Of a DNA stretch of 64,000 nt, positions 10,127-53,486 are shown piece by piece. The translations under genes were made by a program, and so were the position numbers. Source of the DNA: Porphyridium purpureum (Eukaryota); the NCBI GenBank assembly GCA_008690995.1, contig VRMN01000001.1, positions 2,046,001 through 2,110,000 of the forward strand. The letters are read 5' to 3'. Numbering within the stretch: the stretch's first letter is position 1; every line of letters starts with the position of its first letter. Below the pieces are notes generated by a model. That model saw only the letters and a program-made list of their open reading frames with translations. It ran no database searches and was not told the DNA's origin.

Positions 10127-10530
10127 CCTGACCAGCGCAGCCTCTGCCCTTTCAGTGAGACAGCGACGCTGGAGGGTTTCCAAACCATGCAGTTCCCAAA
10201 TCTTTGTGCCTCTTCGACTTGTCGCGCGCTTTTTGGGTGCTTGACCGGGCAGCAGCGCAAACTAGGCAAAGCCAACAGATACAAGACCCCGACCACATTT
10301 GAAAGACGATGGGGTACTCAGTCAAAGGCGTGGATGTCAAACGCGGAACGCGACAGCCCGCAGCGTATAAAATGGGGCGTTGCGTCGCGTTGACCCCATA
10401 CCCACGCGCTAGAGGAACGCGAGCATTGTGAGATTTGGTGACGGTATCATCGGCGCCAGGTGACCTGCGGGAGCTTTGTTACAGACAGCAGTCAACTTCG
10501 TGAATGTTTCAAAACAGCACAAGGATAGAG

Positions 10531-11946
10531 ATGTGGTGCCGTTGGCTCGTGGTGCTCGGCTTGGTATGGATGCTCGCGAGGCAAACGGCAGTGACAGCGT
10601 TGCCGATTGACGCGAGCATTGCGCAATTCGACAGTGATGACTGGATGCAGGCGCATCCTCGAGCGCATTCGCCATCTTCGCAGTCCTCATTCAGTTGTGT
10701 CCCACTATTCTCAGAGTGCGGGATTGAGATGATTTCATCCGAGTGTGTGGACCTCAAGCGAGCTGCGCACGCGGACGGAGAATGCGAGCCTCTCCACATG
10801 TCATTCTACGGACACCGTCTGCAGGAAGCCAAGCTAGCATCCGAGAACGCCGCAGTTTTTGTTTCAAATTACCTCTTCACGCCGCTCACGGAGGTGGACA
10901 CCGTGGTGCCGCGGTTTTCGAGTACATTTTTCAGACTGTCGAACGAACAAGACGAGCAGGGCGTCAGGTGGACATGTCTGAGCACGGAACCCACGTTTGG
11001 AAATCAGCATCAAACACTCACGGGTCAATGCCTAGCATTGTTTTTCTCAGAATTAGCCGTGGCTGATGAAAAGGGTGAGCTACGCACAATAGAATTCTCA
11101 CCAACGGGACCCAGGTCCAACTGCGTCGTGCTCCGCGCGTGTGATGACGAAACTACAGACCCAACCGAAACACCTATGGTAGACCTGTCCGAAACGCCCA
11201 TGGCGGATACGCCTGGTCCAGTTGTCACGGATGCTGCGGCTTCAACTGCAACCGAGCCGTCGCCGGAGCCTTATAAATCTGACGAGCCGACGTCCTCCCC
11301 CACTCTTACGTCTGAAGGCATGAATTCCGGGGAAGCAACGATTTCAGGCGCGTCTGGAGACAGCTGTTTTCCGGCTAACGCATTGGTCCAGGTACGCGAC
11401 GCAGATGGAACAATCAGGTCCACAAGGATGAGTGAGCTGCAAATCGGCGACCACGTCATTTCTGGGCAGTCAGGACCAAACCTGAGGACAAGCCAGGTAT
11501 ACATGTTCGGCCACGCGGACGATAGCATCATCTCGTCCTTCCTTCGATTTTCCCTCATTGCTACGGGCGGAGATTTTCCGGCGTCGCAGCTGGTCATGAG
11601 CCCGGGTCACTACGTGTATCTGGATTCGGACAAGTTCATCCCGGCCCGGTCTGTTCGGTTGGGAGATTGGCTTGCACCGCACTGGATTGTGAGCAACATT
11701 TCAGTAGTCGTCGAACGGGGCCTCTACAATCCTCATACGACGGATGAACGACTCATGGTGCACGGTGTGGAGGTATCTAGCTTTACCGAGAGTGCCCGAC
11801 CAGAGATTGCGGCGTGGCTTTTGCTTCCTCTGCGTTTCCTATTTCACGTTTCTCATGGATCCGTGGCCGTTCGGACGCTCGACTTTGCACGTCCTGTATT
11901 GCTGCATCTGCGAGATCTGTTTCGAGTCGGGAGCAGCGCAGCCTAA
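10531..11946 (+). CDS. Secreted Hedgehog/intein (Hint, Hog-type) domain protein
   Basis: Signal peptide (MWCRWLVVLGLVWMLARQTAVTA), Cys-containing N-domain, Pro/Thr/Ser linker, then S|CFPANALV..MSELQIGDHV..LVMSPGHYVY..ARSVRLGDWL..RGLYNPHT..LMVHGVEVSSFT and a hydrophobic tail. Confidence 0.9.
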   Translation: MWCRWLVVLGLVWMLARQTAVTALPIDASIAQFDSDDWMQAHPRAHSPSSQSSFSCVPLFSECGIEMISSECVDLKRAAHADGECEPLHMSFYGHRLQEAKLASENAAVFVSNYLFTPLTEVDTVVPRFSSTFFRLSNEQDEQGVRWTCLSTEPTFGNQHQTLTGQCLALFFSELAVADEKGELRTIEFSPTGPRSNCVVLRACDDETTDPTETPMVDLSETPMADTPGPVVTDAAASTATEPSPEPYKSDEPTSSPTLTSEGMNSGEATISGASGDSCFPANALVQVRDADGTIRSTRMSELQIGDHVISGQSGPNLRTSQVYMFGHADDSIISSFLRFSLIATGGDFPASQLVMSPGHYVYLDSDKFIPARSVRLGDWLAPHWIVSNISVVVERGLYNPHTTDERLMVHGVEVSSFTESARPEIAAWLLLPLRFLFHVSHGSVAVRTLDFARPVLLHLRDLFRVGSSAA

Positions 11947-17321: not shown

Positions 17322-19331
17322 TTATTGGGAAAGCGACTTGGAGGTCGAGTAGAGCTCCTGGGCACGTTCTGTTGCAATCCACCCGGCCACGGGGTCTACA
17401 AACTTGCGGACAAACACACGTGCGATAAAGATGAGGTGTTCAAGGCCGACCATGAGGAAGAATTCGAGCGCAGAATCCTTTTCACCGAGAATTTCGCGGA
17501 AGTAGCCTGCCGTCATCGAAATAATCAGGATGTTGGTTATGACAGATAGCATGGAGAGCAAGTCGAAGGCGTGGACCCAGCTGCCGATGGTAACTGCACG
17601 ATGCGGAAGAGCACGCTTGAGCAGTCGGCAGCGCTTGAAAGCGTCCGAGAAGATTTCGATGTGGTTGTTGGCGCACGCGAGTGCGGATCCTAGCGGAAAC
17701 GCTGTGGCAAATATGTTGATCTGCGCAAACTGCCGCGTCAGCTCAAAATAGTCGTCAAACACATTCTCGGCGTCGCCCAGCGCAGCCTGCTCCAGTTCGA
17801 TGCTCAGACCCGGCAGGTCTTTGGTGCGTGTCTCATCCTTCTTCTGCTCTGCGATTTCTTTCGCCTTGGCTTTAGCTTTGCGCTGCTGCATGACATATGG
17901 AATCAACGCTTCCTTGACATTCCCCGTGATGAGTTCTATCATAAGCACGTTTCGAAGACCGGCGAACAAGCGGTCAATACTGCACATGACAAACGCCATG
18001 TACAAGTAGGACATGTTCATTGCGATGAATTGGAAGAGCACAAGCTTGAGCACGAGCGCGTTGTCGTACTCGAACTCATATTTGTGGTTCTCCCAGTCGT
18101 TGAGGAAGTGCGCAATGTACTTGTACGCCATGTCAAAAATGTTCAGCGCCACAAGATAGAGTACTAGCGGCACGTTTGCCAAAAGCACCCCATGCACGAT
18201 AAACGGTTTGCTCCACCAATTCAGAAGCGCGTTCTCGGCGATCCAAAAGTTGTTGATATCCGTGAAATCGAGTGCCATGATCATCACGCGCGACGCAATG
18301 TACAGGCACATCAGTGTAATCAGACACGATACCGTGTACTTGAACGCCTTGTACTTGCTTGGGTAAACAAAAATATCCTCGTTCGTGATTGGGTCCTTCG
18401 CCGGTTCGCCCACAAATTGGGGACGCAACTCCTCTTTCAGCGCACGACTCATCAGATCCTCGTCCGCTGAATCACCTAAAATCAAGCCGCGCCATTTGTA
18501 CGTGAGACTTGTGTTGCGACGCTTCCACCCAGCGATGAAGAGCACATTCCAGACCGAGGCAAAAAGCGCGAACGCGCACATGATATATGCTCGCTCCCTT
18601 GGCATCAGCACGCTTAGCACGAACGCGAGCACGCCTAAGAATGCAAACAAATGCAATCGATGCGTATAGTAGCTGAGAAAAGCAAAGTACAGCGCGACAC
18701 GGTCACCGAAGTACTCTCGGAATTTGACCAGGTCCTCGTCGTTGAGCATGTGCTTCTTCTTGGAGAAACACGCCATGAGCTCATTCACACGGCTCTCTTC
18801 GTGCAGTGCAAACAAGTCCGTTACATATTCGTTGCGTTCGCACCACATGAGGAGCGTCTCGCGACCCTGAACACCCTCGAAGAGCTCTGGGTCTGGCAGT
18901 ACATGATCGGTTGCATAATGCAGCAACAGCAGTTGATCAGCTTGCGTCAAGAAGACGTTTGGCGAGTCAGCATTGACGAACTTGTCTACCTCGCTCAACG
19001 TGAACGGCTGCATGCCCTTTCCGTGCCCCTTTTTGACGCGCTTCATCAAGCGCAAGTCCGCGGCGAGATCCATCAGCCTCTGCCATGTCGCCGACACTTT
19101 ACACACAAACACCGGTTCTCCGTCCTGCTGGATGTCTTCACCAGATACAGACGCGGCCTCCGCATCCTTCCCCTTCTTCTTACTGTCCGCCGGCTCTGCA
19201 TGGCGCACCTGCTTCTCCACCTCCACTTCCAACCCGCCCTGCTCGCGCATCGCGGTGCAAAAGTGGGCGATCAACTCGTCCGGCGTGTCGCCATCGAAGA
19301 TCGCTATAATCGGAGCCACGCGCGCCGCCAT
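17322..19331 (-). CDS. Anoctamin/TMEM16 family channel/scramblase (ANO10-like)
   Basis: FALHE, REYFGDRVALYFAFLSYYT, WKRR, LNDWENHK..YDNALVLKLVLFQF, FDDYFELTRQFA, FPL..NNHIEIFSDAFK and IGSW motifs. Confidence 0.93.
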   Translation of the reverse strand: MAARVAPIIAIFDGDTPDELIAHFCTAMREQGGLEVEVEKQVRHAEPADSKKKGKDAEAASVSGEDIQQDGEPVFVCKVSATWQRLMDLAADLRLMKRVKKGHGKGMQPFTLSEVDKFVNADSPNVFLTQADQLLLLHYATDHVLPDPELFEGVQGRETLLMWCERNEYVTDLFALHEESRVNELMACFSKKKHMLNDEDLVKFREYFGDRVALYFAFLSYYTHRLHLFAFLGVLAFVLSVLMPRERAYIMCAFALFASVWNVLFIAGWKRRNTSLTYKWRGLILGDSADEDLMSRALKEELRPQFVGEPAKDPITNEDIFVYPSKYKAFKYTVSCLITLMCLYIASRVMIMALDFTDINNFWIAENALLNWWSKPFIVHGVLLANVPLVLYLVALNIFDMAYKYIAHFLNDWENHKYEFEYDNALVLKLVLFQFIAMNMSYLYMAFVMCSIDRLFAGLRNVLMIELITGNVKEALIPYVMQQRKAKAKAKEIAEQKKDETRTKDLPGLSIELEQAALGDAENVFDDYFELTRQFAQINIFATAFPLGSALACANNHIEIFSDAFKRCRLLKRALPHRAVTIGSWVHAFDLLSMLSVITNILIISMTAGYFREILGEKDSALEFFLMVGLEHLIFIARVFVRKFVDPVAGWIATERAQELYSTSKSLSQ

Positions 19332-19559
19332 AGTGACCGCTCCCACCGTCGCGAGCACTCTCTCCCGACGCGGCTTCCCGTCGCCACTCGGCCGACACAC
19401 TCCCACAGCCCTTCGCGATTCTCCTCCCGCATCCAACCCGCCCACAACCCCAACGATCCAAAGGCAGAACCGCTCGGTCCTGCCAATGTACCTTTCCCAC
19501 TCTCCCACACATACTCACATACATATTCATATTCTTTATTTTTTGCCATTTCACAAAGC

Positions 19560-19644
19560 GCCGCATTAGTTTAAGGGTTCGTGAGATCTTCAAGAATTCC
19601 AGTTTCCCAAACTGGTGGCCCGAGTTCGAGTCTCGGATGCGGTA
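19560..19644 (+). tRNA. trnG-CCC: tRNA-Gly(CCC) with a 14-nt D-loop intron (19579-19592, position 20/21)
   Basis: Acceptor GCCGCAT/ATGCGGT + A73; D-stem GTTT/GAAT; anticodon arm CCAGT-TTCCCAA-ACTGG; T arm CCGAG-TTCGAGT-CTCGG; TTTT Pol III terminator at 19646-19649. The D-loop is 21 nt unless the 14-nt insert is removed. Confidence 0.88.
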
Positions 19645-19955
19645 ATTTTGGAAATCGTTTTGCCGAAATGCATGCTCGCGACTGAGGTTTTATTTTTTGG
19701 GTGTCTCGTTAGGGAGTTACATCGGCACTGAACGGCTGGCGCGCGATACCTCTTGGCATCCCACATGACGCTCCGCGGCACGGCTTGAAAGTGAGAAAGC
19801 GTCCACGTGGGTGTTTTCCCCGTAAAGCAATGCATGCGTTCTCAAGCTATGGTATGCAAAAGTGCATCGTCGCTAGCCAGGTTCCCAACTTCCGGTGGAC
19901 GTTTCCGGTGGAGTCGAGTCGTCCAAGTCCTGCGCTTCTTGCGTTTCTTCCTTTG

Positions 19956-21047
19956 TCACCGTTGCGCATGTTCCGTGCAGAGGTCGATGACGAGTTTGTT
20001 GAAGGCGGCTGGATTGGCGGAATGCACGTTGTGGCCGGCATCCGGGATGCGGAACACACGAGGCGGCTCCGAAACGTTCTTCAAAACATCGCGGCAGAGC
20101 CGCTCGCCGTGCGTGAAATCCATCCAGTCGGTTTCGCCATAAATAAAGTCAACAGGCACTTGCAAAGGCTCCAGACGGTCACATAATGGGGCTCGCGCAT
20201 ACCCGCCCGGCTCAAGCACCGTATTGATTGCATATTCACCGCTTCCAGGTGCTCGCGCCACGGCTTCAAAGTATTCAACGCACGCCCGTTGCACATACGA
20301 TGGCTCGTCCGGGAAACGCGGGAGAATAATATTGCGCGCGATGGCGCGCGGAAAGACGTTTGCAAGAAATGCGCTCCATCGCAGCACGCGCATGGGCGTC
20401 AAATTCAAGCCCCACAGGGTGAACACAAAATGGAACACAAACCACTTGGACCACGGGAAGTGGGATGGCACTTTCTGCGGCGGTACTCTTGGAATGCCAA
20501 CAGGCGAGACCAAAACGAGATTCAAGATATCCTGTGGCCTTTCCAGAGCGTAAAGTGACATCAAAAACCCACCGAGCGAATGTGCGACGATGCTGAACTT
20601 GGCCGCGGGACCTAGCGCGTCGATTCTCCGCAGCTCAGTCAGCAGCGTGCGCAATGGTGCAATGAACCATTGCTCAGCGTCTCGTGCACACATGCCGAGA
20701 TCGTACGGTGGACGACTGGACCCTCCCATGCCTCTCCAATCCACCAGGTGCACTCGGAACGACTCACACAACCCGGGGACATTCTTCCAGTAGTACCCCA
20801 GAGAGGCTCCCCATCCGTGGAATAACACCAGCGGGATCGGGCTGTCCGACCGGATCTTACCAAAACTCACCACATTCAGAAACTCACCAGTGTCCTCATC
20901 GACCACAATCCGCCGCTTCTCCAATGCTGTCGCGAGCCCGACCAGTCCAAACATCTCGCGCTCCGTATCGTCTATCGCGCGCAGCCAGTGGGCCGAAGCG
21001 TCCACATCACGATGCTTCCTGCTTGGCTCGCTCTCCACAATTCCCAT
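19956..21047 (-). CDS. ABHD4/ABHD5 (CGI-58)/Cld1-like alpha/beta hydrolase
   Basis: LVLFHGWGAS, VDWRGMGGSSRP, AHSLGG, LVLVSPVG, SGEYA, FIYGETDWMD and AGHNVH motifs. Confidence 0.9.
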   Translation of the reverse strand: MGIVESEPSRKHRDVDASAHWLRAIDDTEREMFGLVGLATALEKRRIVVDEDTGEFLNVVSFGKIRSDSPIPLVLFHGWGASLGYYWKNVPGLCESFRVHLVDWRGMGGSSRPPYDLGMCARDAEQWFIAPLRTLLTELRRIDALGPAAKFSIVAHSLGGFLMSLYALERPQDILNLVLVSPVGIPRVPPQKVPSHFPWSKWFVFHFVFTLWGLNLTPMRVLRWSAFLANVFPRAIARNIILPRFPDEPSYVQRACVEYFEAVARAPGSGEYAINTVLEPGGYARAPLCDRLEPLQVPVDFIYGETDWMDFTHGERLCRDVLKNVSEPPRVFRIPDAGHNVHSANPAAFNKLVIDLCTEHAQR

Positions 21048-26763: not shown

Positions 26764-29700
26764 ATGGGAGGAGATGAAGGCATGACGATCATGGACGCGA
26801 CACCACACTCATCACTCGCGTCTTGCTCTTTTCCCTCTTCTTCTTCTTCTTCTTCTTCTTCTTCTTCTTCTTCTTCTTCGCTACCCCGTCGGTCTCCTCC
26901 TGTGCGGCGTGGTGCGTTGTACGTGGTGCCATTTGTGCCGGTGCGGCCAGAGCCCAGCTGGAGATGCGGCGCGTGCGTGTGCGAGCGTGTGTGCGTGCGC
27001 GAGGACAGGCCGCGCTTTGTGTACACGCGCGCGCGGAGACGGACGAGGAGGAGCGCGGCTGAGGAGGTGCGCTGTGCGTTTGAGTTCGAGGACGTGACGC
27101 GTAAGCGCGCCCAGGAGCGTGAAGTGCGTGCGGAAGTGGATACGGCCAGTGGCACAGAAGAGAATGCAAACGGACACGCTGAGCGTTCAGAGTCGGAACT
27201 GCGAGTTCCAGAGCGAGATTACAATGGCGCGCACGCGGACGAGCGTGCCAAGCATCTGCGTAATGGGGCATCCGTTCACCTCGGGAAATTCGACGAAGCC
27301 CATATATCTACCGCAAAGCGGCCGCTGACTTCAGAAGAAGAAGCAGAGCTGGCGCAGCTAGCGCAGAAGCTGTTGCCTCGCGTGCAGTATCTGCATAGCG
27401 TAAACTGCACCAAAGTGAACCAAGCACTGCGCGTGGCGTTTATTGCTCACCGAGATCAGCGCCGGAAGTCCGGTGAGCTGTTCGTCACACACCCAGTTGA
27501 AGTAGCGATCCTGCTGGCTGAACTGGGCATGGACGTGGACACAATATGCGCGGGACTGCTGCACGATACGGTTGAAGATACGCCGTTGACCTTTGAAGAG
27601 ATAGAAAATATGTTTGGCCGCGACGTGCGGAAAATTGTCGAGGGGGAGACAAAAGTTTCGAAACTGCCTCAAATGGCAGAGCAACAGATTGCCGATGACC
27701 AGGCAGAAAATCTGCGTCAGATGTTCATTTGTTTTGCCGAGGACTGGAGAATCATTGTGGTCAAGTTGTGTGATCGGCTTCATAACATGCGCACGCTGCA
27801 GTACATGAAGCCACACAAGCAGACAAAGATATCACGCGAGACGCTCGAGATTTTCGGCCCACTTGCCCACCGGCTAGGCATGTGGAGCATTAAGTCTGAG
27901 TTGGAGCAGCTAGCCTTCTTCTATTTATATCCGGAGGAGTACAAGAAAATTGAGGAGCTGGTGAATGAGAAAAAACCGAAGTATGTGCGCATTCTGGAGG
28001 AAAGCAAGGCTCGGCTTGAGGAAGCACTTGCAAAGAACATAGTCCTTTCCAGGGTGGTCAAGCGAATCGAAGTGCGCGCTCGCATCAAGGACTTGTACAG
28101 CGTGTGGCGCAAAATGCAGATGGATGGAAAGAATCTCGAGCAGGTGCATGACCTGGTCGCTTTAAGGGTGGTCATCGAACCTTTGCCTACCAAGCATGCG
28201 CCCCAATCGGCCGGAAGTGATGGCGCAGCGGCGCCATACACTTCTCCCCGTGAGGTTGCGAGACAATCTCAACAGCGTGCGAACCCGCCGTCCACGGCGC
28301 CTCCTGTTGCTTCTGAAGCAGATGCAAATGTCAGACCAAGGATCGAGGCGGATTCGACCAGTGGACAGCAAGCACAGCGACACCACAACAGCACCTCTGG
28401 CGGCGAGTCGCTGTGCTATTATGTTCTTGGTGTGGTGCACGGCATCTGGCAGCCGTTCCCCGGCCGTGTGAAAGATTATATTGCTTTCCCAAAGCGCAAT
28501 GCCTACCGTGCACTTCACACAACAGTGATGGCCGGAGGCGCCCAAGCACCTCTGGAAGTGCAGATTCGTACGTTGGACATGCACCGCGTCGCCGAGTACG
28601 GCATGGCTGCACACTGGCTGTATAAAAAGGAGGCAGCAGAAATGTATATGAAGAAATTACAGGAGGGCAAGCAACGCAGAAAAGGAGCTGACGTCGATTT
28701 TGCTGAGGGTGACGACGGCGACGACGTGGAGGATGAAGACGAATTTGAGGAAATGGACACGAGAAATGCCTCAGGCACAGCTAGGACTCCCGCAGCCACG
28801 GCGCGCAGTCAGACGCAACCGGCTTATTCAGACGTGACGAGCTATCCTACGTACCAGAACCCTCAATATGCGGATTTTGGTACGACGTTTTTAGACTCGA
28901 TTCGGGAGTGGCAAAAGGAAATCTACTCGAGCCGAGAATTTGTGGAGGTTGTACGTCGCGAAATTTTGGGCAACCGCGTGTTCATATTTGCAGGCGACGA
29001 TGCGGAGATTGGCACGAAGAAGATCTTGAGCCTACCGCGTGGTGCAACAGTGGTTGATGCCGCTGTGTCCATGGGTATGAATGTGGCAAAGTCCATGATT
29101 GCGGCGCGCGTGAATGGGCGCATGGTGCCCATGGTTGAAGTGCTCCACAATGCAGACATGTTTTCAGTGATCACCTCTCCGTGCTCGCCAGGCCCGGACA
29201 AGCGCTGGATTGAGTATGCATCGACGCGGCTTGCCAAGACGAGGCTAAAGCTGTACTTCCGGGACCAACGCAAAGCGCGTCGTATAGAGCAAGGGCGCCA
29301 AATTCTGATGGAATACCTTCAGCTGGAGTGCAGTGTTGGAGAAGACCTGGATGTGGATATGGCCACTTTGAACGACTACGTCTCCTCAAACTCCGGCCTC
29401 CAATTTGACACGGTTGATGATCTTTTCCTGAGGTTAGCCACCGCGGACAGCGATGAAAAGGACTCAATTTTTGCATCTATAGGCAAGTCATTTGGTAAGA
29501 GTGCTTCGCCGGTGAACTTTTGGGGTTCGCTACAAGCGGCGTCGCAGAGTTGTCAGGATGGGCGCTTTGAATTTCTTTCTGATCGTGAAAGCAAGGGGTT
29601 TGGCTCCACGAGAGTGGTGCAGGGCCAGCTTGCATCGTGCTGCCTTCCTGTGTTCGGTGATTCTGTCTGTACGCTCTCCGGTGCAGCGCTTGTTGCGGCG

Positions 29701-30096
29701 GCTGAGCAGCAGCGTGCGACGAAGCCAGTCGTGCATAGAATGAGCTGTCACTACGCACAAACGGTGCAGGACAAAAGCGCCGATATTATTCTCAAGCTGG
29801 ACTGGGTTCAAGAAAGCGGTGATTCGAAAACACATGGCGCGCCGTCAGGGCATCAGCGCGGGCGACGTCTGTATCGCAGCTGTCTGCGCGTGACTTGCTA
29901 CGACAGGAAGGGTCTGTTGGCGGACGTGTCGGCGTCCATTAATCGACTCAAAATCATGATTGAGAGCACTGAAAGCAGGACAGTGGGCACGCGTGCGTAC
30001 CTGCAGTTCCGTGTGTTGGTGGCGACTTGCTCAGAAGTAGAGGCTGTCATGCGCTCGATCTCGGAGGTGCCTTCTGTTTTGAGTGTCGAGAGGTGA
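26764..30096 (+). CDS. RSH: Long RelA/SpoT homolog (HD hydrolase, synthetase, TGS, ZFD, ACT), probably plastid-targeted
   Basis: AHRDQRRKSGELFVTHPVEVA, LLHDTVEDT, VKLCDRLHNMRTL, LAHRLG, RVKDYIAFPKRNAYRALHT, EVQIRT..MHRVAEYGMAAHWLYK, LPRGATVVD..ARVNG, ASCCLPVFGD and DRKGLLADVS motifs. Confidence 0.96.
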   Translation: MGGDEGMTIMDATPHSSLASCSFPSSSSSSSSSSSSSSSLPRRSPPVRRGALYVVPFVPVRPEPSWRCGACVCERVCVREDRPRFVYTRARRRTRRSAAEEVRCAFEFEDVTRKRAQEREVRAEVDTASGTEENANGHAERSESELRVPERDYNGAHADERAKHLRNGASVHLGKFDEAHISTAKRPLTSEEEAELAQLAQKLLPRVQYLHSVNCTKVNQALRVAFIAHRDQRRKSGELFVTHPVEVAILLAELGMDVDTICAGLLHDTVEDTPLTFEEIENMFGRDVRKIVEGETKVSKLPQMAEQQIADDQAENLRQMFICFAEDWRIIVVKLCDRLHNMRTLQYMKPHKQTKISRETLEIFGPLAHRLGMWSIKSELEQLAFFYLYPEEYKKIEELVNEKKPKYVRILEESKARLEEALAKNIVLSRVVKRIEVRARIKDLYSVWRKMQMDGKNLEQVHDLVALRVVIEPLPTKHAPQSAGSDGAAAPYTSPREVARQSQQRANPPSTAPPVASEADANVRPRIEADSTSGQQAQRHHNSTSGGESLCYYVLGVVHGIWQPFPGRVKDYIAFPKRNAYRALHTTVMAGGAQAPLEVQIRTLDMHRVAEYGMAAHWLYKKEAAEMYMKKLQEGKQRRKGADVDFAEGDDGDDVEDEDEFEEMDTRNASGTARTPAATARSQTQPAYSDVTSYPTYQNPQYADFGTTFLDSIREWQKEIYSSREFVEVVRREILGNRVFIFAGDDAEIGTKKILSLPRGATVVDAAVSMGMNVAKSMIAARVNGRMVPMVEVLHNADMFSVITSPCSPGPDKRWIEYASTRLAKTRLKLYFRDQRKARRIEQGRQILMEYLQLECSVGEDLDVDMATLNDYVSSNSGLQFDTVDDLFLRLATADSDEKDSIFASIGKSFGKSASPVNFWGSLQAASQSCQDGRFEFLSDRESKGFGSTRVVQGQLASCCLPVFGDSVCTLSGAALVAAAEQQRATKPVVHRMSCHYAQTVQDKSADIILKLDWVQESGDSKTHGAPSGHQRGRRLYRSCLRVTCYDRKGLLADVSASINRLKIMIESTESRTVGTRAYLQFRVLVATCSEVEAVMRSISEVPSVLSVER
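26836..26879. repeat. (TCT)n microsatellite encoding poly-Ser in the RSH leader
   Basis: Directly visible. Confidence 0.95.
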
Positions 30097-51827: not shown

Positions 51828-53486
51828 ATGGCGAGGATGGTCGTCGCGGCGGTGGCCGTTATGGCTGTGCTGAGCGTCGCGCTCGCACAGTTCATCCCAG
51901 ACGTGGACATCACGTGGAAGGTCCCCATGACGCTTGCGGTGCAGGACTTGAGCATTTTCACGGGCCCCAACCAGTTTGGGCGCGGGATTCCGAGCCCCTC
52001 GGCGATCGGCGGTGGAAACGGGCTTGACATTGTCGGCGGCGGTGGGTCCTTCTACATCTCCCCGACAGGCGGGCAGGTTCAATATTCTCGCGGGTCGAAC
52101 AACTTTGGTAATCAGGTTGCGTTCACCCGTGTCCGCAAGAACGGAAACAACGAGTCAGACTTTGCAACCGTGTTTGTTGGCGGCACCACCCCACCGTTCG
52201 TCATTGTTGGTGACAGCACCGAGAACGAGGTGTCCTTCTGGACAAACAACAAGGTCGTTGTGAACAGCCAGGGCTTCATTCCTCCGAATGGTAACTCGGC
52301 CGGTGGAAATGGCCAGTATACGTTTGTGAACGGAATCACGGGAACAGCAGGAGCTCCGGTTGGTGGCACCGTCATCCGTCAAGTTTCCGCGTGGCGTGAG
52401 ATTTTCAACACGGCAGGAAACTGCGTGAAGTCCTTTGGGCTTGTGGTTCGCGGCACTGGAAACCAAGGTCTCGTCCAAGGCGTTGAGTATGATGGGTACG
52501 TTGCTATTGACTCCAACGGTTCATTCGCCATTTCTGGATACTCTCCCGCTGTGAACAACGCACCGGGCTTTGGCAAGAACTTTGCGGCCGCTCGTACCGG
52601 AAACTTTTTCGCCGTATCGTCCGAGAGTGGGGTGATCGTTATGTCGATTCCAGTCGACAACGCCGGGTGCACTCTGTCCTTCTCAGTGGCCTACACGATT
52701 ACTCCCGGCGCGGGCCGCGTATCGGGTGTCTCTTTGGCGCAGGACAATGAATTCTACGCCGCTGTTGGTATTCCCGGAGCGGGCCCAGGTCAGGTGCGTA
52801 TCTACCGTCTTGACGGTGGCGGAGCCACGACGCTCGTGCAGACACTCTCCCCGCCAGATGACATCCCGGAGCTCCCGATTGTCGCAAATCAGCGATTCGG
52901 AGAGACGGTTCGCTTTGGCGCCAACTCGGAAACCAACTACGTGGCAGTGGGTTCGCCAGGGTACGCTGCGGAAGGTCTGGCTCTGTTTTACACGGCCGAG
53001 CCAGGACTTACCCCGAACGACCCAGATGAGGGCCTGTTGACGTTGCTCGCGTACAGTAACAGCTCGGAAATCCTAGCGAATGGTGGCCTTGGCGAGTTCA
53101 TGACCGCCAGCAACTGTCGTCAGTTCGTGTTTGGTGAACCGAGTGTCAACAGCGTCGTGATCTTCTTGGCAAGCATCGGAGCGTACTATGAGGACTACTG
53201 CACGTGCGAGCAGGAGAACATTTTCGATCAGGGCATCATGTTCCCGGTTCCAAACTTCCCTGGTGAGTCCCCGACGACATGCCGCTCAAGCATTTATGAG
53301 TTCCGCTTCAACTGCTTGATGGAAGGTGCCCCAAGTATCTGCACTTACTCTGAGCGCCCGACTTATGAGTGGACCGAAGAGGTTGTTGACCCAGACAACA
53401 CGCCATGCGAGCTGGTGTCGCGCATCCAGAGGCGGCTTTCGCAGAATAACTGTTTCCAGGACTACGTGACCCTGCAGGTCGTTTAA
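51828..53486 (+). CDS. Secreted cell-wall glycoprotein, Porphyridium 66-kDa glycoprotein family
   Basis: Signal peptide MARMVVAAVAVMAVLSVALA|QFIPDVDITWKVP recognised from memory as this protein; Gly/Asn-rich beta region; sequons NES, NGS, NSS; Cys-rich C-terminus. Confidence 0.85.
   Translation: MARMVVAAVAVMAVLSVALAQFIPDVDITWKVPMTLAVQDLSIFTGPNQFGRGIPSPSAIGGGNGLDIVGGGGSFYISPTGGQVQYSRGSNNFGNQVAFTRVRKNGNNESDFATVFVGGTTPPFVIVGDSTENEVSFWTNNKVVVNSQGFIPPNGNSAGGNGQYTFVNGITGTAGAPVGGTVIRQVSAWREIFNTAGNCVKSFGLVVRGTGNQGLVQGVEYDGYVAIDSNGSFAISGYSPAVNNAPGFGKNFAAARTGNFFAVSSESGVIVMSIPVDNAGCTLSFSVAYTITPGAGRVSGVSLAQDNEFYAAVGIPGAGPGQVRIYRLDGGGATTLVQTLSPPDDIPELPIVANQRFGETVRFGANSETNYVAVGSPGYAAEGLALFYTAEPGLTPNDPDEGLLTLLAYSNSSEILANGGLGEFMTASNCRQFVFGEPSVNSVVIFLASIGAYYEDYCTCEQENIFDQGIMFPVPNFPGESPTTCRSSIYEFRFNCLMEGAPSICTYSERPTYEWTEEVVDPDNTPCELVSRIQRRLSQNNCFQDYVTLQVV

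Follow-up and report, generated by a model that had tools for sequence, protein, structure and literature searches.

The DNA of Porphyridium purpureum analysed here is a stretch of 64,000 nucleotides (the window), which contains a tRNA-Gly(CCC) gene at 19560-19644. The gene is matched by the Rfam model RF00005 with 51.6 bits, against a gathering score of 29 (E 1.3e-9), and this is the single Rfam match of the window at E<=5. The match extends over the full length of the model (positions 1-71), with a sole insertion in the D-loop; since it is colinear, the gene is not permuted, that is, its 3' half does not lie upstream of its 5' half. All pairs of the four stems can form: acceptor 7/7 (with G1.U72 as a wobble), D 4/4, anticodon 5/5 and T 5/5. 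The D-loop (19573-19593) measures 21 nt and the anticodon loop 7 nt; the insertion therefore lies outside 37/38, at 20/21, in an otherwise complete tRNA. A sequence-only reading of this DNA had proposed these coordinates, the cloverleaf, the 21-nt D-loop and, within the loop, an AAGG/UCUU helix with a CAA bulge, all of which match the sequence, Rfam and our pairing analysis. The locus comprises the following features:

17322..19331, minus strand: left neighbour, an anoctamin-family gene, outside the element (Pfam PF04547, E 3e-93)
19515..19559, plus strand: A+T-rich leader (A+T content 73%) containing CAA at 19554-19556, a putative Pol III promoter element 5' of the gene
19560..19578, plus strand: predicted 5' exon, covering tRNA positions 1-20 (5' strands of the acceptor stem and the D-stem, and the D-loop through U20)
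19573..19593, plus strand: hBH/BHL motif (helix H, 3-nt bulge at 19591-93, D-stem as outer helix)
19579..19592, plus strand: predicted intron at 20/21, 14 nt, from the hBH geometry and in-silico removal (alternative: 13 nt, 19580-19592)
19593..19644, plus strand: predicted 3' exon, tRNA positions 21-73 (anticodon CCC at 19606-19608, discriminator A73, no encoded CCA)
19646..19649, plus strand: T4 run two bases past A73, putative Pol III terminator
19956..21047, minus strand: right neighbour, an alpha/beta hydrolase gene, outside the element (Pfam PF00561, E 1.8e-25)

The 45-nt leader is unusual for this DNA, only 0.11% of the 45-mers of the window being equally A+T-rich. Because the A box (19567-19577) lies wholly inside the predicted 5' exon and the insert just 3' of it, the internal promoter is uninterrupted. 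The predicted 3' exon carries a 4-nt variable loop and a T arm with the B box (19623-19633), and more T runs are found 3' of the gene, at 19658-61, 19688-91 and 19693-98. The 3' UTR of the hydrolase gene is directed antisense towards the tRNA gene (contigs of 7 sequencing runs start at ~19593-19832). GGG accounts for 158 of the 914 glycine codons in 25 ORFs of the window. Among the named clusters in the matches listed, those closest to a MoeA protein encoded nearby include Erythrolobus australicus (48%) and Rhodosorus marinus (47%). A tree of 22 rows picked from 120 listed hits and cluster members joins this protein to Erythrolobus (100/100), within a red-algal clade (100/99). The window also encodes a 480-aa ORF (10504-11946, plus strand) whose N-terminus is hydrophobic and whose C-terminal part is a Hint module (Pfam PF01079, E 2e-13), and a 1110-aa RelA/SpoT homologue (26764-30096, plus strand) with HD, RelA_SpoT, TGS and ACT domains. 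No second T-arm hairpin of the sort that might mark another disrupted tRNA was found within the 64-kb window.

A list of P. purpureum tRNA genes obtained with default tRNAscan-SE 2.0.9 has been published (PMC10496412, Table S4d). In the part of it covered here, one of 30 rows is a Gly(CCC), of 85 nt, on the plus strand and non-pseudo. The end digits of its coordinates are those of the gene in the window, and it is very probably the same gene. It is listed without a stated intron, and six intron-related terms have 0 occurrences in the main text of that paper, as far as this was available.

The D-loop insert as a predicted intron

Within the enlarged D-loop, 19573-76 can pair with 19587-90 (A-U, A-U, G-C and G.U) as helix H, leaving CAA (19591-93) bulged on the D-stem. 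This combination, a central helix of 4 bp separated from an outer helix by a 3-nt bulge, is the hBH arrangement. After the 5' bulge, the motif has 0 inner pairs, a 10-nt loop replacing the second bulge and the inner helix h'. The D-loop thus departs from the strict hBHBh' form and, lacking the inner helix, is classed as hBH or bulge-helix-loop (BHL). A script that searched the D region for a 4-bp helix adjoining a 3-nt bulge returned four placements, and of these this one alone both stacks on the D-stem and leaves AAGGGUA as the D-loop. Four of four pairs in this register arise with a chance of 0.025 when the insert is shuffled, and in 1137 of the 63986 14-mers of the window; the chance is 4.3% if a slip of one base is allowed, and P for the register is overall about 0.02-0.04. 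A local duplication as the source of the insert was tried and rejected: the insert is unlike the tRNA body and has no close copy in the window (one match with 2 mismatches, at 52394).

Deleting 19579-19592 in silico gives a 71-nt cloverleaf with the D-loop AAGGGUA, which ARAGORN identifies as tRNA-Gly(ccc). Cuts placed two bases into each bulge would restore the conserved positions G18, G19, U20 and A21. Since 101 of 105 arbitrary D-loop deletions likewise give 'Gly', it is the BHL rule, not the ARAGORN call, that fixes the junction. The 71-nt product aligns without gaps with four intronless Gly(CCC) tRNAs from metagenome loci (41-44 of 71 positions identical), with which it has in common a 7-nt D-loop ending in GGUA, the anticodon loop and a 4-nt variable loop; its A15.C48 recurs in loci L001 and L006, which carry one identical tRNA sequence.

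According to ViennaRNA, helix H adds -1.6 kcal/mol to the open loop, compared to -4.5 kcal/mol for a 6-bp hairpin slipped by one base. This slipped hairpin is the fold that ViennaRNA prefers, 2.9 kcal/mol better than helix H, and it would bury the 5' cut site; the probability of helix H is about 2% with the cloverleaf enforced and about 0.4% unconstrained. In Cyanidioschyzon merolae 10D, 27 genes hold 42 introns of 11-69 nt, of which 14 are D-loop introns (Soma et al. 2013, PMC3728597), and the sections of that paper covered here describe the splicing of motifs of positive free energy and of motifs without helix H. Consequently, a weak helix H is not disqualifying, and a length of 14 nt, being within the C. 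merolae range, counts in favour of an intron.

We conclude that the insert at 20/21 of this nuclear tRNA-Gly(CCC) is likely excised as a BHL intron by the algal tRNA-splicing endonuclease, which would yield a 71-nt tRNA. The 5' junction has a margin of one base and may lie 1 nt later. Judging from the anatomy of the gene, Pol III, whose A box is present, would start in the A+T-rich leader and stop at the T4 run. The D-stem would then serve as outer helix, with 19573-76 able to pair with the 3' end of the intron and CAA bulging out, and the endonuclease would capture this hBH fold, by ViennaRNA a minor one. By the BHB rule, cuts after 19578 and 19592 followed by ligation would produce the D-loop AAGGGUA, and end trimming and CCA addition would presumably complete a tRNA reading GGG codons. 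The sequence-only reading had also proposed a D-loop BHL intron: the geometry, the 20/21 position, the restored D-loop and the lineage all agree with this, whereas splicing itself was unobserved and the 5' junction holds only to within one base.

Sequencing runs and alternative accounts of the insert

The RNA and DNA evidence consists of the contigs of 8 runs, of which X3 and X4 are labelled as DNA and X8 as RNA by guess. The spliced junction occurs in none of these contigs, and the 5' exon is covered in X3 only. The X3 contig, from a separate study, spans the gene with 0 differences in 19560-19644; hence neither the insert nor G1.U72 is an assembly error. It has 0 variants in the 85-nt gene compared to 13 in the remainder of the 901 nt covered, a contrast for which Fisher's test is not significant over the intergenic region (p 0.15) or over the whole 901-nt stretch (p 0.27), and gives p 0.013 only in a +-100 window that was chosen afterwards; the gene is thus only weakly conserved relative to its flanks. 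X3 holds two alleles at 19657-19731, just downstream of the tRNA, one with 9 substitutions relative to the window and one with none, and some of these changes are also present in X10 and X13.

Contigs of X8 and X4 (two studies) start at exactly 19593, the predicted start of the 3' exon, without a loose end, while X3 continues through this point; X4, although guessed to be DNA, has a hole over 19438-19592, as do the RNA runs. The odds of one recurring end landing on 19593 are about 1/518 over the gap and 1/85 within the gene. We take these starts as a weak hint of splicing. They would fit a spliced and an unspliced path that merge in the assembly graph, a 3' half released by cleavage, or a reverse transcriptase that halts at position 20; they could instead mark where the hydrolase gene's antisense 3' UTR ends. 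The contigs of 5 of the 8 runs (X10, X13, X14, X19 and X20) do not reach the tRNA gene and begin at ~19662-19832. Starts at ~19662, 19673, 19688 and 19832 in these other runs are probably ends of the hydrolase antisense 3' UTR.

With respect to glycine identity, C35, C36, the eukaryal discriminator A73 and C2-G71 are all present, by comparison with the elements given in PMC9976931. Two pairs are off-consensus, G1.U72 (19560/19643 in the window) and C3-G70, and both are unchanged in X3. The reported consensus pair is G1-C72, and G3-C70 is a determinant in yeast and A. pernix (PMC9976931). The determinants vary among species, and the passages of that paper covered here report none for red algae.

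A variant within the intron explanation, which it does not exclude, has a 13-nt intron (19580-19592), leaving an 8-nt D-loop (AAGGGUUA) and a 72-nt tRNA. The slipped register on which it relies (19574-77/19587-90) also makes four of four pairs and can be lengthened to 6 bp, which gives the most stable of the folds compared; the 3' site is unchanged, hence the contig starts at 19593 suit it equally. However, A14 is then left unpaired, so that a 1x3 internal loop takes the place of the 3-nt bulge on the D-stem, there is no 5' bulge, and as a 4-bp helix the slipped register is 0.6 kcal/mol weaker than 19573-76/19587-90. The Gly(CCC) rows of other red algae in PMC10496412 (30 of its 50 Gly rows shown) point both ways, measuring 72 nt in C. 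crispus, Gracilaria domingensis and Gracilariopsis chorda, as the variant would have it, but 71 nt in Galdieria sulphuraria. We regard the shorter intron as rather unlikely. A different proposal is that the gene is a decaying pseudogene with a neutral insert that is never removed. GGG codons would then be read by tRNA-Gly(UCC), and GGG is indeed readable by a UCC anticodon through wobble. In eukaryotes, a tRNA gene with a short insertion in its D or T arm is usually regarded as a pseudogene (PMC4090602, in the part covered), but this rule concerns one of many synonymous copies and here the Gly(CCC) row is the only one in the published list. Although G1.U72, C3-G70 and the missing spliced junction would agree with decay, the four stems, the A box, the B box, the leader and the T run are all intact, the insert sits at a validated 20/21 site with BHL geometry, and X3 has no variant in the gene. 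Decay of the gene thus appears improbable to us.

Could the tRNA instead be functional while retaining an enlarged, hairpin-containing D-loop? The insert is able to form a 6-bp hairpin on top of the D-stem, but G18 and G19, whose normal contact is with the T-loop, are paired in this hairpin. Furthermore, comparable inserts are removed in C. merolae (PMC3728597) and in C. crispus (bioRxiv 10.1101/2021.12.21.473619), as described in the portions of these sources covered, and we judge retention highly improbable. Finally, ARAGORN returns the unspliced gene as an 85-nt tRNA-SeC(tca). In its fold, the insert becomes an anticodon stem with 4/5 pairs and a mismatch, the D-stem has a single standard pair, and the perfect CCC arm ends up as variable region, whereas RF00005 takes the CCC arm as the anticodon arm; in addition, the P. 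purpureum list holds a separate 86-nt SeC row (PMC10496412). A selenocysteine identity has next to no probability. It is refuted by structure, as the gene has no well-formed UCA anticodon arm with a paired long variable arm. This ARAGORN miscall is in line with an earlier suspicion that default scans may miss the gene, which otherwise went too far, as the published run of default tRNAscan-SE 2.0.9 lists a non-pseudo Gly(CCC).

Probable disrupted tRNA genes in P. purpureum, and known systems

An excised D-loop intron in tRNA-Gly(CCC) would not be new in kind, as the type is known and validated in red algae. Taken alone, the gene mainly corrects annotation, being called a selenocysteine tRNA by ARAGORN and listed by tRNAscan-SE with no intron stated. 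A search of the literature found no report of ectopic tRNA introns in Porphyridium or Porphyridiophyceae. The intron of tRNA-Gly(CCC) would add this third red-algal class to the distribution of ectopic tRNA introns, and the third class bears on whether such introns are ancestral or convergent, an origin called unresolved in the part of PMC13578239 that was covered. With its 14 nt and weak helix, it would also represent a near-minimal natural substrate for endonuclease action without the 37/38 ruler.

The remainder of the P. purpureum list suggests that this gene does not stand alone. In the table as covered (PMC10496412 Table S4d), 20 of the 30 rows exceed the length of an intronless tRNA, reaching up to 219 nt, and no rows are given for Asn, Asp, Cys, His, Thr and Trp; Gly(GCC) is missing as well. 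Some of the over-long rows may be due to ordinary 37/38 introns. The gap in the list resembles the situation in C. merolae before its disrupted genes were found, when 30 tRNA genes were predicted compared to a final 43 (PMC3728597). Given the 20 over-long rows and the six amino acids without a gene, P. purpureum is likely to have a large number of disrupted tRNA genes that are not annotated. We consider it somewhat probable that P. purpureum hides an undescribed set of tRNA genes on the scale of Cyanidioschyzon, broken by ectopic and multiple introns and perhaps permuted, of which Gly(CCC) is the simplest case, and that position-independent splicing is ancestral to red algae. Cyanidiophyceae, Florideophyceae and Porphyridiophyceae make three classes, and it is on this distribution that such splicing would be ancestral. 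If so, introns would have been gained or lost lineage by lineage across red algae. The 20/21 intron of Gly(CCC) itself looks lineage-specific, since from the row lengths above this tRNA appears intronless in Galdieria and the three florideophytes; in C. merolae it is permuted. P. purpureum would then also be a mesophile in which the cutting of D-arm introns by a eukaryotic endonuclease could be studied.

Pattern scans for intron-bearing Gly(CCC) genes were exact-match and say little about absence. In metagenome contigs they yielded no orthologous intron-bearing Gly(CCC), the 7 pattern matches being 5 intronless Gly(CCC) and 2 sequences without an Rfam tRNA match. There were 0 matches in viral contigs and, with one slightly different pattern, 0 in archaeal and bacterial genomes; with the prokaryote scan empty, nothing points to transfer. 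The intronless tRNA-Gly(CCC) genes of loci L001, L004, L005, L006 and L007 are of bacterial type, and upstream of each lies a duplicate of part of its 5' end. For L001/L006 and L005/L007 this duplicate may have been left behind by integration or duplication, whereas that of L004 may be a short tandem duplication.

Among known systems, crenarchaeal tRNAs have 20/21 as a listed intron site and use relaxed hBH motifs, and in the Guillardia theta nucleomorph D- and T-arm introns are excised (PMC4090602, in the sections covered). Unlike either of these, the P. purpureum gene is eukaryotic nuclear, with A73 and Pol III-type flanks. The likeness to C. merolae extends to D-loop introns and hBH motifs, to which that alga adds HBh' and no-H forms, and to the flanks: C. 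merolae tRNA genes have an upstream TATA-like element and a T-run terminator (PMC3728597), comparable to the A+T-rich leader and the T4 run of the present gene. Plant tRNA genes have TATA and CAA upstream (bioRxiv 10.1101/2021.12.21.473619, as far as covered). The Gly(CCC) gene of C. merolae, however, is permuted with a T-loop intron (PMC3728597), whereas that of P. purpureum is colinear with a single D-loop intron; a D-loop intron is thus not common to this isoacceptor.

The mesophilic red alga C. crispus has nuclear D-loop introns at 20/21 that are RT-PCR-validated (PlantRNA 2.0, bioRxiv 10.1101/2021.12.21.473619). In the portion of that source covered, RT-PCR or cRT-PCR showed splicing of tRNA-Cys and tRNA-Tyr (both D-loop) and of tRNA-Trp (T-loop). 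Thus, the sequence-only proposal that archaeal-like splice-site recognition also operates in a mesophilic red alga is a supported reading of the P. purpureum gene but not a novel one. The two algae agree in being mesophilic and in having a nuclear gene with an insert at 20/21 and a predicted BHB-like motif (reviewed in PMC13578239). They differ in class, C. crispus belonging to the Florideophyceae, and in the gene concerned, as the 72-nt Gly(CCC) row of C. crispus is apparently intronless. They differ also in how they were annotated: tRNAscan-SE flagged C. crispus genes as pseudogenes, whereas the Gly(CCC) gene of P. purpureum carries no such flag in the published list.
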